Shown here piece by piece: positions 4,084 through 64,000 of a stretch of DNA of 64,000 nucleotides. Within the stretch, counting starts at the first letter, position 1. Every line of letters begins with the position of its first letter. Made by a program: the position numbers and the translations under genes. The notes under the pieces are model-generated. The model worked only from the letters and a program-made list of their open reading frames with translations. It was not told the origin of the DNA and searched no databases. Source of the stretch: an uncultured Erysipelotrichaceae bacterium (GTDB lineage Bacteria > Bacillota_I > Bacilli_A > RF39 > UBA660); the NCBI GenBank assembly GCA_902775285.1, contig CACYLI010000001.1, positions 219,697-283,696 of the forward strand, written 5' to 3'.

Positions 4084-4093
4084 TTTTTATATT

Positions 4094-6460
4094 TTATTTT
4101 GAAATAAAATGCATTGGGAAATCTACTTTAACTTTTTCTCCTGGCAAGTAATACTTATTTTCAAAAGTTGAAAACCATTTATTAACTCCAAGTACTTTTG
4201 GTAAAGTATAATAACTTCCTTCTTCATGTAAATATTTTTCCTTATTAAATACATTATCATGATTAGTTGTTACCATCCACATTCGATTACCTTTTTTATT
4301 AGTATTTACTTTTACTGCTCTTGTAGGATCTAATTGTGTATTTAATAAATAATCAATTAATGATTCAGTAGTTGCATATCCAAGATTTACAAATATCTTA
4401 GTTTCATTACCACGAGATCCTAAATATAAATAATATGGCATAACTTTTAAATCATCATATGTAAATAAAGAACCTGGTTTATTTATTATTTCTTTTCTTA
4501 TAGATGGCCATTTAATATTCTTATCAAATCCATACATATTAGATAGTGTTACTCCTGGAACAATTTGATCAGAAGTAGTTATAATATTATCAGAAATAAT
4601 ATTATAATATATTGAAGATGCTACATAATAATATTTTACTTTTTCAAATACTGTTTCAACACTAGTAACAGTTACAGGTACAATTTTACCATTAACTTCT
4701 TTAGCTACTTTTGTTCCAACTTTAATATATCCATTCCCATCATATATATTAACAAACTTATTTTCATCTAAACTAAATACTTGATGAAGTTCAACTGTCT
4801 TTAAGACACTTCCATCAGAGAATGTAGTTTTTTCATATGAATCTGCTTCTCTACTTTTTTCAATCCAAATAGGGTATTCATATGTTAAACTTCCACTTTC
4901 ATATGACCAAGCACTTAATAAATCTGTATATGTTATATCTTCTATATTTTTAGTTTTTCCATTTGCAAGTTTTATTTTACTTCCCTCAACTAAACATCCT
5001 CCACTAGTTGCAGTTACATTTATTGTAATTGGACCAGTAACATTTGGAATTTTCATAGTACCTCTATTATTATTTTCTGTCCAAGTATACTGACTATTCC
5101 TAGTTAATGTTCTTCCATTCATTGAAGCACTTATAGTATTAAAATCTCTATTACCAGATACAGTAAACACAGCTGTTAATGTTTCTCCGATAGCTATAGT
5201 ATCTGGACCACTTGATTTACTAATGTTATTTCCTAAACTATATGTTACATTAAATACCCATGTATATGTTGCTGATGTACTTTGAGAACATTTACCAGCA
5301 GATGTTTTACATTCTGTTGCTTGTGTTTTTCCACTATATCCCTTAGTGTCTACGCCATATACTTTAAAATAATATGTACCATTAGATAATCCAGTAGTTT
5401 GGAAAGTTGTATCATTATTTGTCGTAGTAAATGTAGTTATTTTATTATCTGAATCAATTGCCTCAATTATAAAATAATCTATTCCGCTTACATCAGTAGC
5501 AGACCAAGAAAGATCAACTTTACCATTACTAGCCACAAATACAGCATTAACATCACTAATAATAGGAGCATCAACATCAACTAATGATTCATCTTTAGTA
5601 ACAAGTATTTTAATATTACCTAAACTACTATTACCATCATTAGTTACAAAAATTAAATTTGTAGTTTGACTATCAGTAGCAAATGAAACATTTTTTCTTT
5701 CTATATATATATCATAGCTTTGAGTAGTATTTGCAGGAATTGTAAATGTAGATAAATTATTACCATTTGAGTCAACCAATTTAAAATTAGAATTACTTAA
5801 ATTAAATGAAAATTCTTTAGGTGAATCATATGAATTAATTACATTAACACTTACCTTATCTCTTACTTTTGGATTCTTTAAATCTAGTGTAATATTCTTT
5901 GAAATACTTCCAAGCAAGCTTCCAGTTTGCTCTTCTTCTTCACCTTGTGTTTGTACACTTGAACCACCACTAACATTATAATCTCCTGTTGTCTTAGGAT
6001 ACATATAAATAATTAATTTAAATGTTTTAGTAGTAAGTTTAGGTATAATATCACCAGGCTCAATATCTACAACATCATAAGATACATCTAAATTTTCATT
6101 ATTTGTGGTTTCAATAGAAGGAGTAAACATAGCAGATAAAAATTCATAATCATAAAATGACATATTACTCATAGTAATCTCATATTCTGCAACATACTCA
6201 TCATCTAAATTACTATCTGATTCAACAGTAAAATTTAAATTAAAGTTAATACTATCTTTAGTAAATTCAGGATTCTCAGGATTAGTAATATTACTAGAAT
6301 TAACTAATTCAACATTTGTTATTCCAACTTCTCCATTACCAGCAAATTTAACATTACCTCTAATTCCTAACTCCTGTCCATAAATAGCATATCCAACAGT
6401 TACAAATAAAAAAATAGAAAGTGTAATTATTGTTATAATAAGACTTAGCTTATTTTTCAT
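4094..6460 (-). CDS. large secreted protein: N-terminal signal anchor, beta-rich region, FN3-like module, Hint (intein-like) domain and an orphan C-terminal domain
   Basis: Track ORF is 4094..6508. I prefer the internal start MKNKLSLIITIITLS (6460), which has the RBS AGGAAGTG. FN3-like stretch: DLSWSATDVSGIDYFIIEA...GTYYFKVYGVD. Hint blocks: GGCLVEGSKIKLANGKTK, TVELHQVF and YYNIISDNIITTSD. Confidence 0.75.
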   Translation of the reverse strand: MKNKLSLIITIITLSIFLFVTVGYAIYGQELGIRGNVKFAGNGEVGITNVELVNSSNITNPENPEFTKDSINFNLNFTVESDSNLDDEYVAEYEITMSNMSFYDYEFLSAMFTPSIETTNNENLDVSYDVVDIEPGDIIPKLTTKTFKLIIYMYPKTTGDYNVSGGSSVQTQGEEEEQTGSLLGSISKNITLDLKNPKVRDKVSVNVINSYDSPKEFSFNLSNSNFKLVDSNGNNLSTFTIPANTTQSYDIYIERKNVSFATDSQTTNLIFVTNDGNSSLGNIKILVTKDESLVDVDAPIISDVNAVFVASNGKVDLSWSATDVSGIDYFIIEAIDSDNKITTFTTTNNDTTFQTTGLSNGTYYFKVYGVDTKGYSGKTQATECKTSAGKCSQSTSATYTWVFNVTYSLGNNISKSSGPDTIAIGETLTAVFTVSGNRDFNTISASMNGRTLTRNSQYTWTENNNRGTMKIPNVTGPITINVTATSGGCLVEGSKIKLANGKTKNIEDITYTDLLSAWSYESGSLTYEYPIWIEKSREADSYEKTTFSDGSVLKTVELHQVFSLDENKFVNIYDGNGYIKVGTKVAKEVNGKIVPVTVTSVETVFEKVKYYYVASSIYYNIISDNIITTSDQIVPGVTLSNMYGFDKNIKWPSIRKEIINKPGSLFTYDDLKVMPYYLYLGSRGNETKIFVNLGYATTESLIDYLLNTQLDPTRAVKVNTNKKGNRMWMVTTNHDNVFNKEKYLHEEGSYYTLPKVLGVNKWFSTFENKYYLPGEKVKVDFPMHFISK

Positions 6461-6465
6461 AATTA

Positions 6466-7497
6466 TCACTTCCTTTCTATTTTTCTTTTCTTCATTGTAT
6501 ATTTCCAAGCAATTTTATCATTTAAAAGTACAAAATAACTTCTATCAAGTCCTTTATAAAAATTAATAGGCATTCTAACTTCTCCATGAGCATCTAATAA
6601 TTCATCAAAACTAGAAACATCTATTATTTGATGATTGCTTAAATCAGGCAATTGTTTAACATTTACAATTATACTATCATAAGTATTAATAATTTTCTTT
6701 AATGTATTTTCATATAAATGTAAATCTCTTTTCTTTCTAGTAATTATTAATAATACTAAGAAACATATAATAACTGCAAATAAGTATATAACACCTACAG
6801 TTCTCATTAATTTTAATCTATCACCATCAATTGACTTAGTAACCTCTTTTACATTATTATGAGCATCTAAATCAACACTTGCTTCAACTGTCATTTCAGA
6901 TAAAGGTAACTGTAATAAAAGTTTACTTTCAATTGGAGTATCAATATTATTTCCTGATACATTACTACTAACATCTAAATAAACTTTTAATAGTCCATTT
7001 GCTGTACTTAGTCCTAAAGTTTTCTTAAATGAATTCAAAATACCATTATATTTATTATAATCTACATCTAAATTCTCATGAATACTAAATTCTCCACTAT
7101 GAGAAATTACTCCTTTTTTTTCATCAGTAATATTATAAGTTTTAGACCAATAATTAGTTTCACTATTAGATTTATTAGATTCTATAATTGCATAAACTCT
7201 ATACTTATATTCACCATCTACTAAATGATCAAATTTAATATTATAATTATAATCTACATTAATATAATCAATTAAACTAGTAATATAAGTTCTACCTTTT
7301 TCTAAGTATTTACTTTCAAAAAAATCATTTTTCTTTAAATAAACCTTATAATCAATATCATTATTTTCTTGATATTTTAAACTTAATTTCTTTTCTTCAA
7401 AATATCCACTTTTATATAGATAGACATCCATTAGAGCAAATAAAAGCATACCAAAAACACATAATACTTGGATAAGCGTATACTTTTTAGTTCTCAT
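6466..7497 (-). CDS. bitopic membrane protein, DUF5305-like SipW-operon partner
   Basis: N-terminal TM (LIQVLCVFGMLLFALMDVYL), a beta-rich ectodomain and a second TM (VGVIYLFAVIICFLVLLII). It overlaps both neighbouring genes, consistent with an operon. The family assignment is from memory of SipW neighbourhoods. Confidence 0.5.
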   Translation of the reverse strand: MRTKKYTLIQVLCVFGMLLFALMDVYLYKSGYFEEKKLSLKYQENNDIDYKVYLKKNDFFESKYLEKGRTYITSLIDYINVDYNYNIKFDHLVDGEYKYRVYAIIESNKSNSETNYWSKTYNITDEKKGVISHSGEFSIHENLDVDYNKYNGILNSFKKTLGLSTANGLLKVYLDVSSNVSGNNIDTPIESKLLLQLPLSEMTVEASVDLDAHNNVKEVTKSIDGDRLKLMRTVGVIYLFAVIICFLVLLIITRKKRDLHLYENTLKKIINTYDSIIVNVKQLPDLSNHQIIDVSSFDELLDAHGEVRMPINFYKGLDRSYFVLLNDKIAWKYTMKKRKIERK

Positions 7498-8611
7498 AAT
7501 CTATCTCACCCCTTCTAAAAAATTCATTGATCCATAATGTTGGATAACCAATGTACTTAATTTTATATTCTACTTTTCCTAATACTTCTGATGCATTTAC
7601 ATCAAAATAATCAACTCCATTATTATTATCACCTTTAGTTTTAATTGTATACCCTTTAATACTTACAATTCTATGCGTAATAATTGTTCCATTTTTATTA
7701 AATGCAATTACATCTCCTAAAACTAGATTATTAAAATCTACCTTTTCATAAATAATTGCATCCCCTTTTTCATAAACAGGCTTCATAGAATTAGAACCAA
7801 TTGCTATTAACTTATATCTAAATACCCCTGCTACTAGAATAACTATAAAAATTAAAAATGCTAGTATTGGTAAATATACAATATAAGTTGATACTTTTCT
7901 AGAATACTTATTACTCTTTTCAGCATAACTAATACTTTTACTAGAAAAATAATAAATTAAATAAACCAAAACGATATTAAAAACAGAATATAAATAATTA
8001 CCCAAAGCAGGTACTATAGGTAAAATATATCCATATAAAACTATAACACTCTTAAATATTAAACTAGGAATATAACTTACTTTATAAGTTAAATATGAAC
8101 ATAAAAATTCTCTAGAAATAACTGGTAAAACTGTTACACTAATAAAGATAAATACTAATTCTCTATTAGTAAAATCTAAACCATTTATTTCTATCATAAT
8201 ATTTAATGCAGATATTATAACAGCATAAATAATCATTGGAATATAACTATCAATTGATTTTTTTATTATTATATATCTAAGTATTTCCTCACAAATTATA
8301 ACAATAGCTTCAACAAATAATACTCTAACTATATAATTAGAATTAAAATTAAAAATACTATTATTAAATCCTGTAAATAAACCAATTGAATAAATTACTA
8401 CAAAAAATGATAATAAACAAGAAATAACAATTCTAATAACACTTGATTTAGCATAAGAATTATCTTTATATAGTCCATATAACATGAAAGAAACTATTGT
8501 TATCAAAACAATAGATAAATCAAGCATTAATGAATTTCTATATACAAAATTAAATACTATGATAGAAATAAATAGTATTAATTCTATCAAATACAATCTA
8601 ATATTTTTCAT
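7487..8611 (-). CDS. sipW: SipW-type (archaeal/ER-type S26) signal peptidase I fused to a ~250-aa polytopic N-terminal domain
   Basis: C-terminal GSNSMKPVYEKGDAIIYEKV...GDVIAF...IITHRIV matches the SipW-type catalytic core. It is preceded by about 8 hydrophobic helices. Confidence 0.75.
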   Translation of the reverse strand: MKNIRLYLIELILFISIIVFNFVYRNSLMLDLSIVLITIVSFMLYGLYKDNSYAKSSVIRIVISCLLSFFVVIYSIGLFTGFNNSIFNFNSNYIVRVLFVEAIVIICEEILRYIIIKKSIDSYIPMIIYAVIISALNIMIEINGLDFTNRELVFIFISVTVLPVISREFLCSYLTYKVSYIPSLIFKSVIVLYGYILPIVPALGNYLYSVFNIVLVYLIYYFSSKSISYAEKSNKYSRKVSTYIVYLPILAFLIFIVILVAGVFRYKLIAIGSNSMKPVYEKGDAIIYEKVDFNNLVLGDVIAFNKNGTIITHRIVSIKGYTIKTKGDNNNGVDYFDVNASEVLGKVEYKIKYIGYPTLWINEFFRRGEIDYEN

Positions 8612-50283: not shown

Positions 50284-51531
50284 ATGAAAAACGATCCAAT
50301 ATTAGAATATATAGAAAATTCTTTTAAAGATGGTAGTTTAAAAGAACAAATTAAAAATTTAAAAAGATTAATTATTTATTTATCAGATGAAGAAAATAAT
50401 AAAGAAATTGATTTAACAGAAGCAGATTTTTTACTTAATCATAGTGATAAACTTAATACTATGATTAAAACTATAATTGAAGCCGGAAACTATTCTAAAT
50501 ATTTAAATGATTTAAATATTTACTCAATTGCTGCTGTTTATGCAGAAAAAAATAAAATTAATTTAAAAATTGATGATGAAACAGATTCAAGAACTAATCA
50601 TTCTGGTTCATTAACAAAAAAAGATGAAGATATTTTAAATTATTATTTTGACGACATTCATAGAATAAAGTTATTAACACCAGATGAAGAAATAGAACTT
50701 GCTAAAAGAGTTGAACTTGGTGATATGGAGGCTAAGAATAAACTTATAACAGCAAACTTAAGATTAGTTTTAACTATAGCAAGAAAATATGAAGATAAAA
50801 ACCTTCCATTTACAGATTTAATTCAAGAAGGAAACATAGGTTTAATAAGAGCTGTTGAAAAATTTGATTATAGAAAAGGATTTAAATTTTCAACATATGC
50901 ATGCTACTGGATTAGACAAGGTATGTCAAGAGCATTAGCAGAAAAATCAAGAATTATTAAATTACCTACTCACTTATTTGAGGATTTAAATAAAATATAT
51001 ACATTTATGGGAAAATATAGACAAGAACATGGATTTGATCCATCAGTAAGTGAAATAGCATCTGAAATTAATATAAGTAAACAAAGAGTTGAAAGAGCTT
51101 TAGCAATTCAAGAACCTAGATCTTTAAATGAATATTGTAAAAATGAAGATACTGATACAGAAATTGGAGATTTAGTTCCAGATGAAACCGATTATGAAGA
51201 AGATATATTAAATAAATTATATAATGAAAATGTTAAAGCATTCTTAGAAAATAATGAAATATTAACAATTAATGAAACAACTGTATTAAAATATAGATAT
51301 GGTTTTGTTAATGGTAAACTTTATACTTTAGAAGAAATAGGAAATATTCTTGGATTAACTAGAGAAAGAGTTAGACAAATAGAAGATAAAGCTTTAAGAA
51401 AATTAAGCAGATCTAAACAAATGCAAGAATTATATCAAGGTAGAATTAATAAAGATATAATCTATGGACAAAAAAATCATTATAGAACATTAAAACAATT
51501 ATATAGACATCAAGATACAATAAAAATGTAG
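50284..51531 (+). CDS. RpoD-like (group 1/2) sigma-70 factor with a non-canonical ~130-aa N-terminal region
   Basis: Region 2 ([32 protein letters not shown]), region 3, and region 4.2 ([27 protein letters not shown]). Confidence 0.85.
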
Positions 51532-51831
51532 AAATACATTTTTATTTTTTTGAATTAATAATTAAAAATTGAAATGTATATAATATAAGACAACTAATGA
51601 AAGAGAAAAATAATATGACAGAAGAATTTTTAAAAAATTACAAGAAGCAAATCAAAAAGCTATAAAAGTTTATAAAAAAGAAAATAATAAGTTTTTAGAA
51701 GAATGCAAAAAAATTAAAAGGAAAGTTTTATCATAAACAAAAAGAACTTATTGTATTATAATAGTCCTTTTGTTTTAAAGAATAAATTATAATTAATATT
51801 TATTCTTTTTGTTTGATTAACTAAATAAAAA

Positions 51832-51858
51832 TCGAACTATTTCTAGTTCGACTATTTT
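51832..51858 (+). terminator. intrinsic terminator-like hairpin at or near the left boundary of element 1
   Basis: TCGAACTA-TTTC-TAGTTCGA followed by CTATTTTT. Confidence 0.55.
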
Positions 51859-52011
51859 TACAAATGGAGCGATAACTTTACTTATATTCGAAAAATTATA
51901 CTCCCAAAGTTGTTTGATTAAATCAACTAAATAAATTATATCAGTTTTTAAAATTATTACAATACTTTTAGGATAAAATCACTTGTTGCTATTTAAAAAA
52001 ATGTCAAAATA

Positions 52012-52067
52012 TGATATTATTATGGTAGATTTGTATCATTAATTATGATACTTTTTTTCTTGGGAGG
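52012..52067 (+). promoter_or_regulatory. promoter, 5'-terminal hairpin/U7 leader and RBS of NTase operon 1
   Basis: Extended -10 TGATATTAT (52012-52020). TAGATTT (52026-32). GTATCAT-TAATT-ATGATAC (52033-51). T7 (52052-58). GGGAGG (52062-67). Confidence 0.55.
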
Positions 52068-52075
52068 AATTATAT

Positions 52076-52864
52076 ATGTCAGTAAATTCATATTTAGAAA
52101 ATTTAGCGGGGAATTTAATACTATCAAATTCGGAAAAAGATAGTATAAAAACATCAATAGATACATTAGAGTATAGATTAAATTCATATTTTGGTGACGA
52201 TATTGAGGAACAGTTTGAATTTGGATCTTATCCTAGAGTCACTATATTGCCTAGAAAAGTTGATGATGATTCGGATGTAGATTATATGGTTGTATTTGAT
52301 AATTCTAATAATTATAAACCTCAAACTTTTTTAGATAGATTAAGAAAGTTTGCAGAAGCAAAGTATTCTACATCAGAAATTTATCAATCATCACCTACAA
52401 TGGTATTAGAATTAAATCACATTAAATTTGAACTTGTTCCTGCATATAAGTCTTACTCTGGAACATATTATATTTCCAATGGCAATGGTGGTTGGATGGC
52501 AACATATCCAAATGACTTCAATTCACAACTTACAAAAGCAAATAACAATAATTCATATAAAATAAAGCCAATTGTAAGACTTATTAAAGAATGGAATGTA
52601 AAAGTAAATTATCATGATTTAACTTCTTATAAGATAGAAGAAAGAATTGCATATAATATGGATTATTCATATGTTTACTGTACAAGTTATACAGATTATG
52701 TAAAAGAAGCTTTTTATCAATTAAAAAATATTACTTACGATAGTAGCATTAAAAGTAGAATTGATACTGCATTAGAAAGAATAGATAAAGCACTAAAATA
52801 TGAAAATGATAATATGCCTTATTCAGCATTAGGAGAAATTAAAAAGGTTTTCCCAGAGGTATAA
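52076..52864 (+). CDS. minimal SMODS/CD-NTase-type nucleotidyltransferase
   Basis: Pol-beta NTase signature FGSYPRVT...DSDVDYMVVF...IKFELVPAY. 262 aa. Followed directly by a TM effector-like gene. Confidence 0.7.
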   Translation: MSVNSYLENLAGNLILSNSEKDSIKTSIDTLEYRLNSYFGDDIEEQFEFGSYPRVTILPRKVDDDSDVDYMVVFDNSNNYKPQTFLDRLRKFAEAKYSTSEIYQSSPTMVLELNHIKFELVPAYKSYSGTYYISNGNGGWMATYPNDFNSQLTKANNNNSYKIKPIVRLIKEWNVKVNYHDLTSYKIEERIAYNMDYSYVYCTSYTDYVKEAFYQLKNITYDSSIKSRIDTALERIDKALKYENDNMPYSALGEIKKVFPEV

Positions 52865-52865
52865 A

Positions 52866-53642
52866 ATGAGTGATGATAGAATAGATGAAATTCAAGAACT
52901 TTATGATAGGTGCAATAAAATTGCAAAGTATGCTAATTGGTTATTTTTAATTAATATTGCTGTTTCGTTTATATTATTATTTAATTTTAAATATAGGGAT
53001 ATATTTGTTATTATAAGTCTATTACTAACTATTGTATATGTTATATTGGTAAACATAAATGAAATGTATTTTAGTAATCTTGCAGAAAACGAAAGAAGAA
53101 AGTCTCTTTTAAAAGAATCGTTTGATGTTAACACTACCTTGAGAGATACAAATAAGTATTATAATAATGAAGCACAACCTTCTATTGAAAAACTAGGACT
53201 AAATTGTTATGAAAGTGCCTTTTTTACAAAAAAAGTAGTTGATAAAATGCTTCCGATAAATATTATTAAAGTTAGTATACTTATTATAATATATATAATT
53301 TTAATGATAAAATTAGATAATATGGATTTATTATTAGTAATTACACAAACATTATTTTCTGCCGAAATTATATTTTCTTTTATAAAATTATGTTATTATA
53401 AATTTCAATTAGATAAAGTTTGTAAAGAATTTCAAAACATATTTTTGATAATTGGTTTAAAAAATAAAGATGCGAATGTATTAATATTAGATGCTACTAT
53501 GGATTATGAATGCTTAAAAAGTTATTGTAAGATTTTAACATCTAGCAAGATTTTCCTTAAAAACAATGATCAATGGTCAAAAGAATGGCAAAGACTGTTA
53601 AATAAAATTAAAAAGAAAAAGGAGAAGGATAGCAATGAATAA
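52866..53642 (+). CDS. four-TM (2+2) membrane protein, S-4TM-like putative effector
   Basis: Starts 1 nt after the NTase stop. Helices WLFLINIAVSFILLFNF, IFVIISLLLTIVYVILVNI, VSILIIIYIILMIKL, LLLVITQTLFSAEIIFSFIKL. Confidence 0.6.
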   Translation: MSDDRIDEIQELYDRCNKIAKYANWLFLINIAVSFILLFNFKYRDIFVIISLLLTIVYVILVNINEMYFSNLAENERRKSLLKESFDVNTTLRDTNKYYNNEAQPSIEKLGLNCYESAFFTKKVVDKMLPINIIKVSILIIIYIILMIKLDNMDLLLVITQTLFSAEIIFSFIKLCYYKFQLDKVCKEFQNIFLIIGLKNKDANVLILDATMDYECLKSYCKILTSSKIFLKNNDQWSKEWQRLLNKIKKKKEKDSNE

Positions 53643-54993
53643 TTATGATGTTTGTATTATAGGTGCTGGTCCATGTGGCTTAACTCTAGCATTAGAATTA
53701 AGTACCAAATATAAAGTATGTATTATTGAAGCGGGACGTGAGTATCAAAAAAGAATATGTCCACTAGATACGAAAGGAATATGTAAAGAAAATTGTAATC
53801 CTTGTAATATTATAACAGGTTTCGGTGGGTGTCAATTTATTGATGGTACAAAGGCATGCTTTTATCCCGCAGGATCTGGCTTATTTAATTTTAATTCTAA
53901 AGAAGAAGTTATATCAAATTATAATTATATAGAAAAATTGTTAGTTAAATATGGTAAACCATTGAGAGAACAATCAAGCGAAGAAGAAATAAACAAAATA
54001 ATAAGTGATTTTAATAAATATAATATTGATGTTAAATATTATAATGCTCAAAAAGTGGATAAAGATGTTATGCAGTCAATTGGAATTAGAATGCGTGAAG
54101 AGTTAATTAAAAATGGTGTTGAATTTTTTTATAATGAATGTGTCTACAACATAGAAAAAAATGATGATTTCACCATTTATTCAACAAGCAAAGTAATCAA
54201 AGCAAAAAAGGTTGCCTTAGCTACAGGCAGATATGGTGGACTATTCTTAAACAAGTTATCAGAAAAATTGAAGATAGAATATGAAAAAAATAATTTTGTA
54301 GGTGAAATAGGTGTAAGAATAGAAATGCCATATAATGTTTTTAATCATGTTGATAATGTCTTTAACGATATAAAATTAAAAAGAAAAATTGATGATTTTA
54401 ATGAGATGAGGTCTTTTTGTCAAAACTATAAAGGTATAGTTAGAAAATGTGTGTTTGATACCGAAAACGCTAAAATGTCTTCATTAGATGGTTGCATATT
54501 AGGTCCAGAAAGAAATAATACACAAAGTATAAATATTGCTATTCATCACAGAAAAAAAGATATAACTGAAATTGAGAAATTTAAGGATATGATTTTACAA
54601 GCAAATAAGGACGGAAAGCCAATCGCTCAAAATATGGTATCATTTCTTAATAATACAGACAATTGTGAGTTTAACGAAAAATATTGTACTATGAAAGATT
54701 ATGTTATAGATAATGCTAATAAGTATTTACCAGAAGAAACATTAAATTATATAAAAGATATGATAGTTGATATTGATAAGGTTTTACCAGGATTTGCTGA
54801 TAGAGACAATATAGTTTATGCTCCATCATTTGAATTAGGCGGAGATAAATACAAACTTTCAAAAGGGTTTGAAACAAATATTGAAGGATTATATATTGGC
54901 GGAGATGCTTGTGGATTCTTTAGAGGATTAATGCAAGCGATGATATCAGGTAAAATAATTAGTGAAGATATAATAAAAAAAATGGAGGTATAG
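53635..54993 (+). CDS. FAD-dependent oxidoreductase (COG2509-like)
   Basis: YDVCIIGAGPCGLTLALEL dinucleotide fold, Cys cluster CPLDTKGICKENCNPC, and C-terminal GLYIGGDACGFFRGLMQAMISG. 8-nt overlap with the upstream gene. Confidence 0.8.
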   Translation: MNNYDVCIIGAGPCGLTLALELSTKYKVCIIEAGREYQKRICPLDTKGICKENCNPCNIITGFGGCQFIDGTKACFYPAGSGLFNFNSKEEVISNYNYIEKLLVKYGKPLREQSSEEEINKIISDFNKYNIDVKYYNAQKVDKDVMQSIGIRMREELIKNGVEFFYNECVYNIEKNDDFTIYSTSKVIKAKKVALATGRYGGLFLNKLSEKLKIEYEKNNFVGEIGVRIEMPYNVFNHVDNVFNDIKLKRKIDDFNEMRSFCQNYKGIVRKCVFDTENAKMSSLDGCILGPERNNTQSINIAIHHRKKDITEIEKFKDMILQANKDGKPIAQNMVSFLNNTDNCEFNEKYCTMKDYVIDNANKYLPEETLNYIKDMIVDIDKVLPGFADRDNIVYAPSFELGGDKYKLSKGFETNIEGLYIGGDACGFFRGLMQAMISGKIISEDIIKKMEV

Positions 54994-54997
54994 AAAG

Positions 54998-55654
54998 ATG
55001 AATGAAAAAGATTATATTGAGATTAACAAAGCATCATACGATATAGTTGCTGAAGAATATAAAACAAAATATAAAAACAATGATGGTGCTAATAAGTTTT
55101 ATGAGATATTACAGGAATTTGTTTTAAATAAGAAAAATAGTAGCATTTCAAAAATGTTAGAAATTGGACCAGGAGTTGGTACACTTCTAAAAATATTTGA
55201 AGAAAAAGGATTTAGAACAACAGCAGTAGAATTATCAAAAAACATGGCATCTTTAGCTTGTGAAAATTCGAGTAATTCAGTCATTATCAATGGCAATATT
55301 CTTGAAACTGATTTTATGCCTAAACAATTTGATTTTATTTTAGCAATGGCTGTTATTCATAATTTTCCAGAAGAAGATTTAATAAAATTACTAGATAAAA
55401 TTAAAATATGGTTAAAAGATGACGGATATTTTATTTTAGATACTACTAATAATAAAGTTACCGAAACTGGATTTTTTGAAAAAGAAGATTACAATAATAA
55501 TGTAGTACGTTATAGAAGAAAATGGAAAAAGGAAGATTTAGAAACTTTTATGGAAAAACAAGGATTTTATATTCAAGATAGTGTTGTTTATAAAGATTCT
55601 ACCTCTAGTAAAGAATGGCTTATATATAGTTTTAAAGTTGAAAAAAGTGCGTAA
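54998..55654 (+). CDS. class I SAM-dependent methyltransferase
   Basis: MLEIGPGVGTL (motif I), FDFILAMAVIHNF. Starts 4 nt after the FAD gene stop. Confidence 0.8.
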   Translation: MNEKDYIEINKASYDIVAEEYKTKYKNNDGANKFYEILQEFVLNKKNSSISKMLEIGPGVGTLLKIFEEKGFRTTAVELSKNMASLACENSSNSVIINGNILETDFMPKQFDFILAMAVIHNFPEEDLIKLLDKIKIWLKDDGYFILDTTNNKVTETGFFEKEDYNNNVVRYRRKWKKEDLETFMEKQGFYIQDSVVYKDSTSSKEWLIYSFKVEKSA

Positions 55655-55674
55655 TATTTTACACACTTTTCATT

Positions 55675-56985
55675 TTATTCTAAAGTCTTAGAATTGTCTT
55701 TTTCTTTTTGAATATCTTTATCAAAATTATTAAGATTATTTTGTATGCCTTCGGCTCTTTTAGTTATTTCTTTACAATACTTATCATACTTATAGAGTAC
55801 TTTAATTTTAGGTTGTATATCATTTATTTCAGCAAGTATTTCATTTTGTTTATCTTCAATTTTTGCTCTGTGGTATCTTTTCCAGAGATTTTCTCTTTTT
55901 CCTTTTAATTCACTTAATTCATTAGAGTTATTTTTAGCAAAATTTTCCAAATCTTCTTTTGTAACGATATTTTTCTCATGCATAAATCTAACTTGTTGTG
56001 AAATTTGTTCTAATTTATAAACTTCTTTTCTAATAGAGTATGGAAGATATTGTTTTGGATGTTTCTTTGGAAAGACTCCTAGTAGATAACAATAGTATAA
56101 ATATAATCCATATATTCCTTTATGGGTTTTATTAGTTTTAGAATATTCTTCAAAGATAGATTTTTGTGGCATAGGTCTAAATACTATTTGTCTTGATAAA
56201 TATAATCGTTGGTTTAGTCTTTCTTTTGAATATTCTTCACCAAATACATTTTCTATTCTAACTTTATCTTCACCATCTCTATAAATAGTTATTACACCAT
56301 TACGAGAATAAACTTTATAACCTAGTGACCTCATTCTCTCAAATAATTGTTTTAAAGTAACTGAATAACTAATAACACTATCTAAATCTTCTTTAAGAGT
56401 TTTGTAATATTCATCATTTGAAATGCTTTTAGTATAAGTCCTTTTATAAAACTTATCTTCATCTAAAACAGATAGTCCATATTCAGAACATAGTGAATCA
56501 GAAATATGTCTTATCTTTGATATATTGGTTAGGTTGTTATTATATTTCTTACCAGTTTTAAATGATACAGAATTGATAATGAAATGGTTGTGTATGTGGT
56601 TAGTATTTTGATGTGTAGCAACAACCACTTCATAATCTTTAAACATTTCTTCAACAAACTTAACTCCAATCTCATGAGCAATGTCAGGAGTAACTTCTCC
56701 TTTTTTAAATGACTGATAACCATGATAAGCGAGAACTCCATCTTTTTTTCTAAATCTTTCTTTGGTGAACTCCATATCATCACAAGGATTATCTTCATCA
56801 CAATTCAAGCAACTGACATAACAAACTTTTTCTTCTTTAAAATTATAATCTTTAATAGGTTCTTCTAAATAACTATATGATTCTCTATTACCATAATCTT
56901 TATTAAGAGTTTTCTCAGGATTGATGATATAATTTATAGACTGCTTTAAATTATTCTTAATACTCCAAATTGATGTTGTTGCCAT
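55675..56985 (-). CDS. relaxase/mobilisation nuclease (MobA/VirD2-type)
   Basis: MATTSIWSIKNNLKQSINYIINPEKT N-terminus and the His-cluster ATHQNTNHIHNHFIINSV. Confidence 0.85.
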   Translation of the reverse strand: MATTSIWSIKNNLKQSINYIINPEKTLNKDYGNRESYSYLEEPIKDYNFKEEKVCYVSCLNCDEDNPCDDMEFTKERFRKKDGVLAYHGYQSFKKGEVTPDIAHEIGVKFVEEMFKDYEVVVATHQNTNHIHNHFIINSVSFKTGKKYNNNLTNISKIRHISDSLCSEYGLSVLDEDKFYKRTYTKSISNDEYYKTLKEDLDSVISYSVTLKQLFERMRSLGYKVYSRNGVITIYRDGEDKVRIENVFGEEYSKERLNQRLYLSRQIVFRPMPQKSIFEEYSKTNKTHKGIYGLYLYYCYLLGVFPKKHPKQYLPYSIRKEVYKLEQISQQVRFMHEKNIVTKEDLENFAKNNSNELSELKGKRENLWKRYHRAKIEDKQNEILAEINDIQPKIKVLYKYDKYCKEITKRAEGIQNNLNNFDKDIQKEKDNSKTLE

Positions 56986-57008
56986 TATAGGTTTATTCTT
57001 CCTTTTTG

Positions 57009-57040
57009 GGTGGTGGGAGTAATACCACCTTGCTTGCTTA
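57009..57040 (+). promoter_or_regulatory. candidate oriT core of element 1
   Basis: GGTGG...CCACC hairpin with GGGAGTAA in the loop, followed by TGCTTGCTTA. Same motif and spacing recur at 63394-63430. Confidence 0.4.
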
Positions 57041-57048
57041 TGACAACA

Positions 57049-57402
57049 TTAGACATAAATTAACTCCTTTAGAATAATTTCTTCAGCAGTATTTTTATAA
57101 TTATTCATCAATTTTACCCATTCAAGTTGATTATTTTCTTTACTTTTTTCGGATAGTTTTTCATCATTTTTAATATAATTATCCATTAAAGTTTTTAATC
57201 TTTCTTCACATTCTTTACTGGCTGAAAGAAGATGATTTGTTAGTTCATTCTTCATTAAAAGTGCTTGATATAATCCTTTTTTGTGTTCCTTAATATAATA
57301 TAATCGCAAGTAACCATACTTATTTACTTCTCCATAATTTTGATTTTCTATTACTAAATTAGGTAATAAATAGTCTCCAACTTTTCTATAATCGATATTC
57401 AT
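57049..57402 (-). CDS. tnpV: TnpV family transposon protein
   Basis: MNIDYRKVGDYLLPNL...NKYGYLRL...QLEWVKLMNNYKNTAEEIILKELIY matches the TnpV pattern of Tn4451-type elements. Confidence 0.8.
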   Translation of the reverse strand: MNIDYRKVGDYLLPNLVIENQNYGEVNKYGYLRLYYIKEHKKGLYQALLMKNELTNHLLSASKECEERLKTLMDNYIKNDEKLSEKSKENNQLEWVKLMNNYKNTAEEIILKELIYV

Positions 57403-57420
57403 AATTTAATCAAATCCTTT

Positions 57421-59262
<1,842 letters not shown>

Positions 59263-59288
59263 TTAGTAATGAAAGGCACCAAAGTAAA

Positions 59289-59314
59289 AAGGTGTCACAT
59301 AACAAGGACACCTT
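59289..59314 (-). terminator. hairpin terminator upstream of the recombinase gene
   Basis: AAGGTGTC-N10-GACACCTT followed on the minus strand by TTTTT. Confidence 0.5.
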
Positions 59315-59382
59315 TGAATAATTGATTATTTTATACGACAAAAACAACCAATATTGTGGGAGTATATAAACTCACCAATTCA

Positions 59383-59655
59383 TTAATGCCTTGCTATGTA
59401 CTCTGATAATTCAGACAATGGGATTTTCTTCTTTAAATTCCCTATATAAAAATGTTTCTGTTCATTGAAGAATAGGTATAACTTATCTCCAATAATTACT
59501 TTATGTGGTTCTACATACGCTAAATTGGTATGTTCCACAATCCTTAAGTATCCTTCAATTATTTGATAGGACTTCTTATTAAATTTGCAAGACCAATTAA
59601 TTTTGGCTTTGAGTTCATCACTCATATTGATTTTCTTTTTTACGATATTAATCAT
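59383..59655 (-). CDS. hypothetical 90-aa protein at the right end of element 1
   Basis: ORF in the track with no recognisable motif. Codirectional with the recombinase. Confidence 0.4.
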   Translation of the reverse strand: MINIVKKKINMSDELKAKINWSCKFNKKSYQIIEGYLRIVEHTNLAYVEPHKVIIGDKLYLFFNEQKHFYIGNLKKKIPLSELSEYIARH

Positions 59656-59836
59656 ACCACATCACACCCTTTCTTTGCAATAGCAACAAAAAAATCAACT
59701 TGCGTTGATTTAATCATTAACATCGCTTGGTGCGACGATTTTATCTTTTGGAGCGATTAAGCAACAGCTTACGAACTAATAAGTTCTCTTTCTAAATAAA
59801 TTATATATTAATTCTTTTTAAATTTCAATGGGAGTA

Positions 59837-59913
59837 TGGAAAAAAATACCTAGATATAGTATAATTAAACTAGATTTCGTATCGTTAAATTACGATACTT
59901 TTTTTGTGGGAGG
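59837..59913 (+). promoter_or_regulatory. promoter, 5'-terminal hairpin/U7 leader and RBS of NTase operon 2
   Basis: TGGAAA-N17-TATAAT (59837-59865). TAGATTT (59871-77). GTATCGT-TAAATT-ACGATAC (59879-98). T7 (59899-905). GGGAGG (59908-913). Confidence 0.55.
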
Positions 59914-59918
59914 TTTAA

Positions 59919-60812
59919 ATGAGATATACTGAAAGTCAATTAGAAGGTTTTACTAAGCCAATTAGTGATACTGAAAATCAAAGATGTGAAAATATGATAA
60001 AAATGGTAAAGGAGGCTATCCAAGACTATTATATTGAAACTAGAGATAATAAAATGAATTTAAGTGATTATGAAATATTTTTACAAGGTTCTTATGCAAA
60101 CAATACTAATGTTAAGCAAAATAGCGATGTTGATATTTGTGTTATGTATAAAAATGTATTTCATTATAGTATGCCTGAAGGATATTCTTTAAATGGCTCA
60201 TACACAGATTCTTCATTAGATTATTTTGAATTAAGAAATACCATAAAAAGAGCATTAATTAAGAAATTTGGCTCTGATAGAATAATAGATAAAAATAAAG
60301 CTATAAGGATATTATCAAACTCTTACACGACAGATGCAGATGTTGTAGTTGCATTTCAATATAGAAAATATATCAATTCCACAAATTTTCAAGAAGGTAT
60401 TTATTATAAAGCATTAGATAAGTCCATAGTTATTAATTATCCTAAAATACATATTAAAAATGGAAATGAAAAAAATGTTGCTAGTAATTATATGTATAAA
60501 AAAATGGTAAGAATTTTCAAAAAAATAATGTATGATATGCAAGATGACAAAATTTATGGAAGTAAAGATGTAAAAGGATTTGTTTTAGAATGTATGATTT
60601 ATAATTTTCCTAATGATGAGATGTTTAAACATATAGAAACTAAATATACAGATAATTTACAAAAAATGATGAATACATTTATTAATGAATCTATGAATTT
60701 GTGGAAAGAAGTAAATGAAATAAAATGGTTATTTGGCATTGAAGAAGGAAAAAAAGAAAGTGATTATAAGGATTATATAAAAGCTATGAAGGAGTATGTA
60801 AATGGAAACTAA
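59919..60812 (+). CDS. cdnX: CD-NTase (cGAS/DncV-like nucleotidyltransferase)
   Basis: FLQGSYANNTNVKQNSDVDICVMY and TTDADVVVAF catalytic acidic residues. 297 aa. Overlaps the downstream effector gene. Confidence 0.8.
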   Translation: MRYTESQLEGFTKPISDTENQRCENMIKMVKEAIQDYYIETRDNKMNLSDYEIFLQGSYANNTNVKQNSDVDICVMYKNVFHYSMPEGYSLNGSYTDSSLDYFELRNTIKRALIKKFGSDRIIDKNKAIRILSNSYTTDADVVVAFQYRKYINSTNFQEGIYYKALDKSIVINYPKIHIKNGNEKNVASNYMYKKMVRIFKKIMYDMQDDKIYGSKDVKGFVLECMIYNFPNDEMFKHIETKYTDNLQKMMNTFINESMNLWKEVNEIKWLFGIEEGKKESDYKDYIKAMKEYVNGN

Positions 60813-61407
60813 AAAAATTATAATAATATTGCCAATTATAAATTATATTATATTTTTTTCTTTAATATCTAAAATTATTAATCTGTCGTGGTATGATTCA
60901 CTTGGATATGCTATAACTGCAACATTACTTGAAATATTTATATTCAAAAAATGGTTATGGAAAATACCAATATTACAAAAAATCACTAAAATTAACAATA
61001 TACAGGGAATATGGACAGGAAAAATTGTATCTAATTACGATGATAAAGAGCACATAATAGAGGAAGTTATTATTAAGCAAAGTTTTAATAAATATAAAGT
61101 AGTTCTAAGCACAAAAGAATCAAGAAGTTATAGTGGTATTAACGAAATAAGTATTAATGAGTTTGATAGAATGGAATTACAGTATATGTATAAAAATGAA
61201 GCTCCAGTAAATTTAAGAAAAAAAAATCCTATGCATTTTGGTGTTGCAAATTTAGAGTATAAAGATAATAAATTAACTGGGACTTATTGGACTGATCGAG
61301 AAATTAATGGTGGAAAAAATACAAGAGGAACAATGGAATTACAAAGAACTAACAAAAATGGACATTTTGATTTAATAAGTATATTAGATGTTTTTGATGT
61401 TTTTTAG
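60802..61407 (+). CDS. cap15: Cap15-like (S-2TM-beta) CBASS effector
   Basis: Two N-terminal TM helices, then a beta-rich ~130-aa domain (GIWTGKIVSNY...YKVVLSTKESRSYS...LQYMYKNE...HFGVANLEY...LTGTYWTDRE...TRGTMELQR). 11-nt overlap with the CD-NTase gene. Confidence 0.7.
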   Translation: METKKIIIILPIINYIIFFSLISKIINLSWYDSLGYAITATLLEIFIFKKWLWKIPILQKITKINNIQGIWTGKIVSNYDDKEHIIEEVIIKQSFNKYKVVLSTKESRSYSGINEISINEFDRMELQYMYKNEAPVNLRKKNPMHFGVANLEYKDNKLTGTYWTDREINGGKNTRGTMELQRTNKNGHFDLISILDVFDVF

Positions 61408-61426
61408 AAAAAATTATTAAAAATAT

Positions 61427-61435
61427 GTTATAATA
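61427..61435 (+). promoter_or_regulatory. extended -10 promoter element for the repeat-protein gene
   Basis: TGTTATAAT about 25 nt upstream of the RBS AAGGGAGG. Confidence 0.4.
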
Positions 61436-61459
61436 TTTAGCACAAAGGGAGGATTTGGA

Positions 61460-63016
61460 ATGAAAAGCGATGAATTAAAGAAATTAATTAGTCAAATAAG
61501 AAAGTATAATTTGGAAAAAGCATTTGATACACCAAAAGATTTTGATAAGTGGCTAAAGGGCTTAAGTGCAAAACAAATTAAAAATTTTAATAGTTTAACA
61601 GTAGAACCAAGTGAAATACAATTTCCTGTATGTTTTTTAATTGATGAAGATTTATTAAATTGTGATGATTATAATAATAGAATTATTGCAATGTCAAAAA
61701 TTAGAAATGCTGATGGATGGTATCACCTATTTGATAGATTATGCTCACCTAATTTTTTGAATAGTAAAAATTATTATGAAGACATGGAAATGATAAGTAA
61801 GGCGCCTAGTGCACAATATCCTTTATGGATAATTAATGAAGATGCTTTTATAAATAGCCCATATCATAAAGAAGATTTAAAACTTATAATAGAAGCAAAA
61901 GATACGCCAAAAGAAAATGGTAATGAATTAGACTGGCTTGTAGCAGAAGCTTTAACTGTAGTTGCTGGTAATGCTAATTCTATTAATAGTCCATATCATC
62001 AAAAGGATATGCAGTTAATAGCACATGCTGGTAGTGAATGCTTGCAAATGAGCCATTCTTATCCAGAAAGTAGTTTAAATAATCTTGCAACAAATAGTGT
62101 TTCATTAAAAGATAAATATCATCTAGAAAATATGCAAATACTAGCACAAAATCCAGCAGCAGGAGAATATCTATATGAGTTGATGACTAATCCTGAAATT
62201 ATTAAGGGAAGATATTATAGAAACGAAGTAAATGCTTTGGCTACTTCAAAAAGTCCGATTACCGCATTAGCAATGTATTTTTATATTTTAAATCCAGATG
62301 AATTTGAGTCAAGAAGAAAATCAAGTGATTTACTATGGAATTTAGGATGTTGGGACTATAATGATGTCTTAGAATGTAGACGAAGAAATAGTATTAAAGG
62401 TAGCACCAATCCAAATTATATAAAGTATTTAGAATCATTAAATCAAATTGATGATAAATGTGTATTATTTATTGAATCACTTTTATCAAATAAAACTTTC
62501 GCTAGTAGTCAATATTGTGACTATGATCTAAATTTATTACTTTCTACACAAGATAAAAATATTTTTATAGATTTATATAGGGTTATGTCTAATGAAATAT
62601 CGTTAAATGGAAGTCATCATATTAAAGACTTAGATATTATAAGTAAAGTAAGTAATAAAGAATTAAGGCAGTTGTTAATAGAGAAAGCAATAGATGAGGA
62701 TAGTATAGATAGTTGCTATCACGATTATGATATGGAATATATATCTAAATTAGATTTGGATAACATTGATAAAGAAACTTTTAAATTAATATATCATTAT
62801 CTTTTTATTCCTAATAAAATTAATCACCCTAATCATATTGAAAGACTAGAAAAACTATCAAGAGGTGAAAGTATACAAAGTGAAGATACTATAATAAGTC
62901 ACCTAGATTACTTAGAAAATAATCCAGATAATGTTATAGTTCCAGATAAAGTAGTTCCAAATGAAGAAAAACCAAAAGTTTTATCTAGAATTAGACAAAT
63001 ATTTAGGAAAAGATAA
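61460..63016 (+). CDS. uncharacterised helical repeat protein (~10 copies of a ~40-aa NSPYH-type repeat)
   Basis: Repeats INSPYHKEDLKLIIEA, INSPYHQKDMQLIAHA, LKDKYHLENMQILAQN, LNGSHHIKDLDIISKV, IDSCYHDYDMEYISKL, INHPNHIERLEKLSRG and others. Confidence 0.6.
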   Translation: MKSDELKKLISQIRKYNLEKAFDTPKDFDKWLKGLSAKQIKNFNSLTVEPSEIQFPVCFLIDEDLLNCDDYNNRIIAMSKIRNADGWYHLFDRLCSPNFLNSKNYYEDMEMISKAPSAQYPLWIINEDAFINSPYHKEDLKLIIEAKDTPKENGNELDWLVAEALTVVAGNANSINSPYHQKDMQLIAHAGSECLQMSHSYPESSLNNLATNSVSLKDKYHLENMQILAQNPAAGEYLYELMTNPEIIKGRYYRNEVNALATSKSPITALAMYFYILNPDEFESRRKSSDLLWNLGCWDYNDVLECRRRNSIKGSTNPNYIKYLESLNQIDDKCVLFIESLLSNKTFASSQYCDYDLNLLLSTQDKNIFIDLYRVMSNEISLNGSHHIKDLDIISKVSNKELRQLLIEKAIDEDSIDSCYHDYDMEYISKLDLDNIDKETFKLIYHYLFIPNKINHPNHIERLEKLSRGESIQSEDTIISHLDYLENNPDNVIVPDKVVPNEEKPKVLSRIRQIFRKR

Positions 63017-63029
63017 GTTAAAAGCAATG

Positions 63030-63341
63030 TCATTTGGCATTGCTTTTGTCATCTATTAGTTTATTCAAATTATTGATTATTTTATCTAAAACAACAATTA
63101 TTTTTTCATATCGAAGTCTGTGCATATAATTATTTACCTCATTTAAATCTTTAATAGATGATTTAACAATATTGTTTATAGTATCAATATCTATCTTTGA
63201 TTTAGTTTCATAAGTGTAATCTTTGATTAGTTTTCTAATAAATTCAGATTGTGTTAGTCTAACCTTATTAGTTTTTTCTATTAGTAAATCGTGTTCTCTT
63301 TCGTTCAGAAAAACATTTAGTTTTATATTTCTATTTCTCAT
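63030..63341 (-). CDS. MobC-like ribbon-helix-helix relaxosome accessory protein
   Basis: KLNVFLNEREHDLLIEKTNKVRLTQSEFIRKLI is the RHH/MobC pattern. Located next to an oriT-like region. Confidence 0.6.
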   Translation of the reverse strand: MRNRNIKLNVFLNEREHDLLIEKTNKVRLTQSEFIRKLIKDYTYETKSKIDIDTINNIVKSSIKDLNEVNNYMHRLRYEKIIVVLDKIINNLNKLIDDKSNAK

Positions 63342-63370
63342 AATATTTCATTCCTTTCTTTGTTTTGGGC

Positions 63371-63477
63371 TTGGGATATCCCAAAATTGAATTTGCAAAA
63401 TTGCGGGAGTAAGTTTGCAGTGCTGGCTAATACCAAAAATTTTAAATGTACTCACATATGGAACTTGTGTACTCACA
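63371..63477. promoter_or_regulatory. oriT/operator-like region of element 2
   Basis: 14-bp perfect palindrome TTGGGATATCCCAA (63371-84). TGCAAA...TTTGCA hairpin with GGGAGTAA in the loop plus TGCTGGCTAA (63394-430). Two TGTACTCACA direct repeats (63447-56 and 63468-77). Confidence 0.45.
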
Positions 63478-63482
63478 CAAAA

Positions 63483-63839
63483 TTATTGATAAATTATCTC
63501 ATTTTTTATGATTTCTTCAGCACAATTTTTATAATTATTCATTAATTTTACCCACTCAATTTGATTAATATTTTTATTTTTTTCAGATAGTCTTTTATCA
63601 TTTTTTATATAATTATTCATTAATATTTTTAATCTATTTTCACATTCATTACTAACTGAAAAAAGATGTTTAGTTAATTCATTTTTAATTAGTAATGTTT
63701 GATAAAATCCTTTCTTATATTTCTTAATATAATCTAATCTTAGATAACCATATTTGTTTATTCTACCATTATTTTTATTCTCATTTATTATTAAATTTGG
63801 TAATAAATAACCATTAATTTTTAAATATTTTATATTCAT
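63483..63839 (-). CDS. tnpV: TnpV family transposon protein (second copy)
   Basis: Roughly two-thirds identical by eye to the 57049-57402 product (YLLPNL, NKYGYLRL, EWVKLMNNYKN, AEEII). Confidence 0.8.
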   Translation of the reverse strand: MNIKYLKINGYLLPNLIINENKNNGRINKYGYLRLDYIKKYKKGFYQTLLIKNELTKHLFSVSNECENRLKILMNNYIKNDKRLSEKNKNINQIEWVKLMNNYKNCAEEIIKNEIIYQ

Positions 63840-63859
63840 AATTTAAATCATTCCTTTCA

Positions 63860-64000
63860 TTTTTCATAATTAATTACTCTAGTTTTTGGTATTAAAAGTA
63901 GTCTATCAGTAATATTTTCTCCGTCATAATATGGACATTCTATTACACCATCAAAGTAAAAATGCTCTTGAATAAGTTCAGTATAAAAGTTGATTTCTTT
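63860..64000 (-). CDS. C-terminal fragment of an upstream gene, probably a second large serine recombinase (5' part outside the window)
   Basis: My own translation gives ...KEINFYTELIQEHFYFDGVIECPYYDGENITDRLLLIPKTRVINYEK, ending in TGA at 63860-62. That is 20 nt before tnpV, mirroring the recombinase-tnpV junction of element 1 (18 nt). Confidence 0.35.

Follow-up and report, generated by a model that had tools for sequence, protein, structure and literature searches.

Do genes on a mobile element make up one system if they are tightly packed and their start and stop codons overlap? The question is raised by four genes on the plus strand of a 64,000-nucleotide (nt) stretch of DNA, hereafter referred to as the window, from an uncultured Erysipelotrichaceae bacterium (contig CACYLI010000001.1, positions 219,697 to 283,696). 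The block, at window positions 52076–55654, encodes a cGAS/DncV-like nucleotidyltransferase (CD-NTase; gene 1, 52076–52864, 262 aa), which is the cyclase of an anti-phage signalling system based on cyclic oligonucleotides (CBASS); a four-transmembrane (4TM) CBASS effector (gene 2, 52866–53642, 258 aa); a flavin adenine dinucleotide (FAD)-dependent, COG2509/VP0956-like flavoprotein (gene 3, 53635–54993, 452 aa); and a class I S-adenosylmethionine (SAM)-dependent methyltransferase (MTase) of the small-molecule type (gene 4, 54998–55654, 218 aa). An earlier, sequence-only reading took the four for a single undescribed system. We consider it highly probable that the block is instead a composite operon, in which a type I CBASS is followed by an autonomous flavoprotein–MTase cassette. 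The evidence seen directly comprises the gene content, the boundaries of the two modules, the independent distribution of each of them and the generic nature of the overlap between them.

The layout of the block was reproduced in a check of open reading frames (ORFs), with the same coordinates, gaps and overlap as in the sequence-only reading. The cyclase and 4TM genes are separated by 1 nt, the 4TM and flavoprotein genes overlap by 8 nt (ATGAATAA), and 4 nt separate the flavoprotein and MTase genes. A GGAG-type ribosome-binding site (RBS) stands ahead of all four starts and no terminator-like site was found on the plus strand within the block. The G+C content is about 24% throughout the window. 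Judged by these features, co-transcription of the four genes from one promoter is plausible. The four domain assignments made from the sequence also proved right when checked by Pfam, PADLOC, motifs and fold matches.

The cyclase–4TM pair and the slot behind it

Gene 1 matches Pfam SMODS (E 7e-44) and, end to end, the PADLOC Cyclase model PDLC00769 (2.5e-94). It carries the catalytic motif GS...DSDVD (G50-S51 and D65-S-D-V-D69), and its nearest solved CD-NTase is CdnD 9NTN, at weak similarity (E 6e-4). Gene 2 matches the PADLOC Effector 4TM model PDLC00719 end to end (E 1e-55) and has four hydrophobic segments (residues 23–41, 46–64, 130–148 and 155–173) arranged as two hairpins. No Cap2/Cap3 or HORMA/TRIP13 genes were present among the Pfam and PADLOC matches of the operon and its flanking genes. 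Since the PADLOC cyclase and 4TM effector matches are both full-length, genes 1 and 2 appear to form a complete canonical type I CBASS. By its sequence the pair is a new member of this type, with all of the defining features that sequence can test. In CBASS generally, phage infection prompts the CD-NTase to synthesise a cyclic nucleotide signal, to which the 4TM effector answers by damaging the membrane, with abortive infection as the result. The pair in the window (52076–53642) would act in this way, its CD-NTase making a cyclic nucleotide upon infection and its 4TM protein damaging the membrane. Two-gene CD-NTase/4TM operons conferred defence on their own when tested in a published study (bioRxiv 10.1101/2023.05.21.541620).

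Co-occurrence of the two gene pairs was tabulated by tblastn over all fetched loci, comprising 22 flavoprotein loci and 18 cyclase/4TM loci. A cyclase or 4TM gene was found in none of the former (0/22) and a flavoprotein or MTase gene in none of the latter (0/18). Co-conservation of the four genes among homologues therefore failed in both directions, and flavoprotein and MTase are found with CBASS in the window only. The sequence-only reading had named the occurrence of the flavoprotein–MTase pair away from NTase and 4TM genes as an observation that would speak against its proposal; such occurrence was found in every other context examined. The claim of one undescribed four-gene system was given up, neither pair being conserved with the other.

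The scan against PADLOC models, by which the sequence-only reading had suggested learning whether the block is already classified, divided the block. Genes 1 and 2 match known CBASS models; the flavoprotein matches no defence model of PADLOC-DB 2.0, and the MTase has only a generic, domain-level match to mad2 (1.3e-17, MTase core). It is true, as had been stated, that no CBASS with an FAD-dependent oxidoreductase and an MTase of this kind has been described: there is no PADLOC model of one, and our literature search found no published description of such CBASS accessories or of the flavoprotein–MTase pair itself. The absence of these two genes from the described CBASS classes here reflects juxtaposition and not a new class, because the co-conservation by which an accessory is defined was tested and was not found.

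The same transposon is present in locus L098 without the flavoprotein–MTase pair. Window positions 51857–53650 and 55678–59755 align to this locus at 94.8% and 94.3% nucleotide identity, respectively, and its 4TM homologue is the closest found (95%). In place of the flavoprotein–MTase block the slot is filled by a 365-aa gene with an H...HD motif. The same HD-like gene follows the 4TM gene in L099. The HD-like genes lie at 3504–4601 of L098 (365 aa) and 5770–6873 of L099 (367 aa), contain H65...H89-D90 and match Pfam HD below threshold (E 0.005). The 4TM and HD-like genes have been kept together at 81–82% identity, but between L099 and the window the cyclases share just 44% identity; the cyclase has therefore apparently been swapped in L099. 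Other genes follow the 4TM gene elsewhere. In L102 (5720–7646), part of a related NikA/TnpV/recombinase element, these are a NUDIX gene and a PHP-NUDIX fusion, both matching the PADLOC candidate family PDC-S07, and in L112–115 they are KilA-N genes. In L116–119 (3207–8234) the same CBASS pair is embedded in a bacteriophage exclusion (BREX) operon, between brxC and pglX.

The 8-nt overlap, which had been put forward as evidence of coupling between the 4TM and flavoprotein genes, turned out to be generic to the 4TM 3′ end and is common to the HD-like genes and BREX pglX. In the BREX copy there is likewise an 8-nt overlap between the beginning of pglX and the 4TM stop, and the HD-like gene, the flavoprotein gene and pglX all start 7 nt ahead of the 4TM stop (−7 offset). 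In the window, L098 and L099 the 4TM gene carries 'aaggagaaggata(g/a)caATGAATAA' at its 3′ end; the BREX-embedded copy has 'aaggataATGGATAA' there. Because unrelated downstream genes share the −7 offset, the overlap belongs to the 3′ end of the CBASS cassette and does not denote a dedicated partnership. On a mobile element, neither tight packing nor an overlap of start and stop codons is evidence of a single system, because the effector 3′ end in this CBASS lineage is a universal docking point for any gene behind it.

According to the composite-operon reading, the flavoprotein–MTase pair (53635–55654) would have been spliced ORF for ORF downstream of the 4TM gene, displacing the HD-domain gene retained in L098. 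Recombination at the start microhomology could have replaced the HD gene by the flavoprotein ORF. The incoming pair would use the RBS and the ATGAATAA start that the 4TM gene contains at its 3′ end; because both are supplied by the 4TM gene, the pair is probably co-transcribed with the CBASS and stands outside its mechanism. The locus offers a clear natural case of a cassette being exchanged with ORF precision in a family of small mobilisable transposons that ferries CBASS.

We regard as highly improbable an integrated four-gene CBASS variant, in which the flavoprotein and MTase would tailor or inactivate the signal or shield the cell against the 4TM effector it carries. Such a variant would explain the tight operon with its overlapping or adjacent ORFs and single leader, and would suit both the links of the flavoprotein clade to nucleotide enzymes and the precedent reportedly set by the nucleotide-modifying ancillary genes of type IV CBASS. 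However, conservation with CBASS is lacking from either side, the nearest transposon copy (L098) is without the pair, and elsewhere the pair is furnished with a promoter and an RBS of its own and serves as the sole cargo of another transposon (L094). The overlap is generic, and in the published tests cited above two-gene 4TM CBASS operons suffice.

The variety of downstream genes raises another alternative, namely that the position after the 4TM gene is an accessory slot whose interchangeable, nucleotide-directed enzymes modulate the CBASS signal or nucleotide pools. Three of the five alternative occupants are nucleotide phosphohydrolases, and the 4TM and HD-like genes have stayed together beside a cyclase as divergent as that of L099. 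In addition, flavoprotein relatives are fused to HD and Ham1 domains, and NUDIX domains are contained in the CBASS effector Cap16 (PMC10419184). We find the accessory slot improbable, however, in view of the KilA-N genes and of pglX, a gene of another system, which occupy the same position, and of the flavoprotein–MTase pair being far commoner without CBASS than with it. Nothing indicates that any occupant acts on the signal.

The flavoprotein–methyltransferase cassette

The limits of the cassette were obtained by blastn. Homology to CBASS-free copies starts at 53628–53635, at the flavoprotein ATG, and ends at 55634–55661, up to 7 nt past the MTase stop at 55654. Comparison with L096, L091, L001 and L094 delimits a discrete, exchangeable block at 53635–55661 on the plus strand. 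The copies differ in their surroundings. In L096 (flavoprotein 94% identical) a tRNA end and intergenic DNA lie upstream and the same MTase downstream; in L091–93 (91%) a helix-turn-helix gene and a 149-aa gene precede the flavoprotein gene and the MTase gene follows it. L001–6 (84%) have a conjugative-element context with TrbL and PrgI, and in L094 (83%) a different serine-recombinase/Mob transposon carries the flavoprotein and MTase and no other cargo. In two cases the downstream partner is another enzyme: an nfo-like endonuclease IV (EndoIV) TIM barrel instead of the MTase in L097 (85%), and an N-terminally truncated RlmN/Cfr-family radical-SAM methylase in L007 (64%). Every CBASS-free copy is preceded by a TATAAT-like box and a GGAGG of its own, and stand-alone flavoprotein ORFs also start with ATGAA(T/A)AA(T/C)TA(T/C)GAT.

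At least 12 MTase sequences were tied to flavoprotein sequences by a longest contig of identical size (180750, 43773, 15696, 19267, 312777 and 404154 bp are examples), and one MTase/flavoprotein pair has adjacent NCBI accessions, MCI7553825/MCI7553826, from a Mycoplasmatota metagenome-assembled genome. Because of these shared-contig links and adjacent accessions, we consider the pair a widely co-inherited unit that is often chromosomal. An undescribed cassette of an FAD- and Cys4-containing flavoprotein and an MTase circulates in gut and rumen Mycoplasmatota and Bacillota, on transposons, conjugative elements and chromosomes. In two cases the flavoprotein is split into two fragments beside an intact MTase (P0378 and P0379, on a 3721-bp contig; P0382 and P0383, on 21 contigs, the longest of 17293 bp), which suggests pseudogenisation of a dispensable accessory gene.

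The flavoprotein contains the FAD Rossmann motif GAGPCG (residues 10–15). Its AlphaFold model has a predicted local distance difference test score (pLDDT) of 83.6 and a predicted template modelling score (pTM) of 0.87. By far the best Foldseek match of the model is PDB 3NLC (VP0956; E 3.7e-21, template modelling score (TM) 0.75), the uncharacterised prototype of COG2509. The match to Pfam FAD-depend_C (PF21688) reaches 19.4 bits, with a cut-off of 27; distant relatives are above threshold. Four cysteines, C42, C50, C54 and C57 (Cys4), and also C262 are invariant in the clade and are found in 78–80 of 80 distant genomic COG2509 paralogues. The Cys4 site sits in the sole low-confidence loop of the model, a placement that fits a metal or Fe-S site. 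A scan of the genome collection with the flavoprotein alignment was swamped by the generic FAD motif and returned only 24–29% identical paralogues, which served for the cysteine comparison, and tblastn against plasmids and phages only 23–28% paralogues. Viral-collection scans for the flavoprotein and 4TM protein revealed no relatives, and a metagenome scan with a single flavoprotein sequence gave two loci, both irrelevant.

The MTase matches Pfam Methyltransf_23 (2.3e-16) and Methyltransf_11 (3.5e-14), both above cut-off, as well as Methyltransf_25, and has motif I EIGPGVG at residues 55–61. By fold, its model (pLDDT 90) comes closest to small-molecule MTases. The best match is 5UFM, 1,6-didemethyltoxoflavin N1-methyltransferase (TM 0.78); natural-product and TehB-like enzymes come next.

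Relatives of the flavoprotein repeatedly occur with enzymes acting on nucleotides or nucleic acids. At 42–45% identity there are fusions to an HD_3/YfbR-type 5′-deoxynucleotidase (P0064) or to Ham1/inosine triphosphatase (P0077 and P0083). In L107 (1281–7858; contigs carrying P0085) a homologue with 42% identity lies in an operon where it is preceded by a 273-aa unknown, a radical-SAM protein (243 aa), an AAA_18 kinase-HIT protein (509 aa) and a 182-aa unknown and followed by an XTP/dITP diphosphatase and a 225-aa unknown. By its gene content this operon looks like a nucleotide-modification pathway. The genes that follow the flavoprotein homologue in L111 differ from those of L107. The radical-SAM methylase gene of L007 (9358–10206) overlaps the gene of its flavoprotein homologue; the RlmN/Cfr assignment has an NCBIfam E of 6e-55, below the family cut-off. 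The product is without the N-terminal ~65 residues of RlmN, and a HIT gene is nearby. Viperin was considered for this partner and dropped, the PADLOC pVip match being weak (2.6e-6) compared with the RlmN/Cfr one. An apparent flavoprotein–IstB fusion (P0557) was rejected as a likely insertion sequence or gene-call artefact.

For the chemistry of the cassette we tentatively favour, at somewhat less than even confidence, a redox step coupled with methylation, acting on a small molecule that resembles a nucleotide or nucleobase. The flavoprotein, with its FAD and a Cys4 site binding a metal or Fe-S cluster, would perform the redox step, and the small MTase would methylate the substrate or the product of the flavoprotein. 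The substrate is probably nucleotide-like, because flavoprotein relatives pair with or are fused to RlmN/Cfr-like, EndoIV-like, Ham1 and HD enzymes. The MTase's nearest fold, which acts on a heterocycle derived from GTP (toxoflavin), was also counted toward the nucleotide link. The cassette would be an accessory trait of mobile elements, possibly a protective one; its benefit might lie in phage defence, toxin resistance or pool sanitation. If it is defensive or nucleotide-modifying, this would be the first function for the large uncharacterised COG2509 family.

An independent, undescribed module directed against phages or other mobile genetic elements, which would synthesise or break down a modified nucleotide and stand beside CBASS as a mini defence island, is a contender, if a less likely one. 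The transposon family that carries it also ferries CBASS in the window, L098, L102 and L113, the partner gene varies as is typical of defence modules, and the occasional pseudogenised copies fit an accessory gene. One relative is in an operon with a radical-SAM protein (with weak viperin-type matches), a kinase-HIT protein and Ham1. On the other hand, the flavoprotein has neither a PADLOC match nor relatives in the viral collections, many copies are on large chromosomal contigs, and the CBASS-free cassette copies tested do not have known defence genes as neighbours. We think it unlikely that the cassette is, in a more specific version of this idea, a new autonomous conflict module that makes or modifies a non-canonical purine-like nucleotide with swappable partners and occupies a post-4TM hotspot where it possibly cooperates with CBASS. 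Such a module would combine FAD/Fe-S redox chemistry with methylation and draw its partners from class I MTases, RlmN/Cfr-like radical-SAM, EndoIV-like, Ham1 and HD enzymes.

Resistance to or detoxification of a small molecule (a redox-active heterocycle, a nitro compound or a metalloid), unrelated to phage defence or nucleotides, also appears unlikely as the role of the cassette. Transposons of such architecture classically carry resistance genes, as with catP of Tn4451; the flavoprotein has a Cys-rich site, and the structural neighbours of the MTase are natural-product and TehB-like enzymes, with weak NCBIfam matches to ArsM- and TehB-type models. All of the resistance-family matches are, however, far below cut-offs, the flavoprotein relatives repeatedly pair with or are fused to Ham1, HD, HIT, EndoIV-like and RlmN/Cfr-like enzymes, and the other cargoes seen in this transposon family are defence genes.

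Several points weigh against the composite operon or against the redox-plus-methylation chemistry favoured for its second half. The sample amounts to about seven distinct flavoprotein contexts and five distinct CBASS contexts. The most abundant MTase sequences, P0267, P0307 and P0308, were not matched to flavoproteins among the members listed. The tight packing without an internal terminator makes joint expression almost certain, and a functional interaction acquired after the fusion is conceivable. The HD, NUDIX and PHP-NUDIX occupants of the slot are nucleotide hydrolases; together with the nucleotide-linked flavoprotein clade they are compatible with a loose functional theme behind CBASS. 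The chemistry proposed for the cassette argues from guilt by association, and distant COG2509 paralogues have no conserved synteny.

The mobile elements and their leader

The four-gene block is carried by a mobilisable element (element 1) at approximately 51843–59755. The limits are those of blastn homology to L098 (94–95%) and L102 (75–77%), which place the left end at 51843–51857 and the right end near 59755. Directly downstream of the block the minus strand encodes a MobA/VirD2-type relaxase (PF03432; 55675–56985, Pfam Relaxase 1.4e-37), TnpV (57049–57402, Pfam TnpV 1.3e-30) and a large serine recombinase (57421–59250, Pfam Resolvase and Recombinase), in agreement with the earlier view of the block as cargo of a mobile element. 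From this recombinase/TnpV/relaxase gene set the element is predicted to be mobilisable. No match was found by megablast of the element against plasmids.

The sister element, said in the sequence-only reading to carry a CBASS behind the same leader, indeed does so. It begins near 59755, and its plus-strand cargo (59919–63016) consists of a CD-NTase (59919–60812, PADLOC PDLC00801 6e-87), a Cap15-like two-transmembrane (2TM) effector (60802–61407, PADLOC 2TM PDLC00705 8e-36, Pfam Cap15_CD_rec 2.7e-18) and a 518-aa protein (61460–63016) that has no Pfam or PADLOC match and holds the same post-effector position as the flavoprotein in element 1. A NikA-like gene and another TnpV are also encoded. 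The two serine-recombinase/TnpV elements thus stand head to tail (51843–59755 and 59755–64000), each with a different CBASS cargo. A second recombinase gene adjoins the element in L098 also, and therefore such elements are suggested to stack into small defence arrays.

About 110 nt upstream of the cyclase, with a −10-like box, a palindrome, a T-run and an RBS, are conserved in seven CBASS cassettes, those of element 1, the sister element (leader at 59879–59905), L098, L099, L102, L112 and L113. The BREX-embedded cyclase–4TM copy is without this leader. In element 1 a consensus scan placed a putative promoter on the plus strand at 51986–52020, either TTGCTA-18-TATGAT or TTTAAA-17-TATTAT with an upstream TG. 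The conserved palindrome GTATCAT-N5-ATGATAC (52033–52058, plus strand) is followed by a T-run ahead of the RBS (52062–52067). In the sister element the palindrome is GTATCGT/ACGATAC, a compensatory change, although the cyclase and effector types differ. RNA folding gave only a weak leader hairpin, and a riboswitch-like reading was dropped for this reason; an Rfam search of 51500–60000 returned no match. From its sequence the palindrome could serve a repressor as operator, or act as a weak attenuator.

At the left end of element 1 a 45-nt stretch (51827–51871) is an inverted copy (91%) of a tRNA 3′ end (CGCTCCA) and a terminator hairpin. The same tRNA-end/terminator sequence is present upstream of the stand-alone cassette in L096 (20–64). 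ARAGORN found no tRNA in the window. Immediately to the left of element 1, on the cargo strand, is a sigma-70-family gene (50284–51531) with regions 1.2, 2, 3 and 4 and a 115-aa N-terminus that has no family match.

Comparison with known systems

The first two genes of the block resemble type I CBASS systems whose effector is a 4TM protein, among them EcCdnD12-4TM, which has been tested by experiment, in the order of a SMODS/CD-NTase and a membrane effector of about 250 aa with four helices. In contrast to these systems, the pair in the window has low similarity to any solved CD-NTase, rides a serine-recombinase mobilisable transposon in an organism with 24% G+C, and has unrelated genes translationally butted onto the effector 3′ end. 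In the Millman 2020 classification type IV CBASS is said to include ancillary QueC-, TGT- and OGG-like nucleotide-modifying genes. To our knowledge, type IV is the sole described CBASS class with enzymatic base-modifying accessory genes, and it is the nearest precedent for the four-gene idea; the flavoprotein and MTase have no homology to its accessories and, in contrast to these, show no co-conservation with the cyclase.

The pairing of flavin redox and methyl transfer recalls MnmC, in which an FAD oxidoreductase and a SAM methyltransferase act in sequence on one nucleobase substituent. Flavoprotein relatives also pair with another nucleic-acid methylase family (RlmN/Cfr). The likeness goes no further than analogy: flavoprotein and MTase fall outside the DAO/MnmC and MnmC/MnmM types, respectively, and neither has evident tRNA-binding features. 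With COG2509/VP0956 proteins the flavoprotein shares the fold, 3NLC being its best match, and the Cys4 and C262 residues common to distant paralogues. It is, however, only 20–29% identical to them and belongs to a distinct mobile clade (42–94% identity) in which the enzyme partners vary, whereas no neighbours are conserved around the distant paralogues.

Element 1 itself has what we take to be a Tn4451-like mobilisable transposon architecture, a matter of family resemblance. The Tn4451/Tn4453-type mobilisable transposons are clostridial, and Tn4451 carries catP. Like them, element 1 encodes its large serine recombinase, TnpV and Mob relaxase on a single strand, opposite a short cargo operon. 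It differs in its relaxase, which is of the MobA/VirD2 type (PF03432), and both elements of the window differ in their cargo, defence and enzyme genes being carried instead of catP, and in their insertion in tandem.

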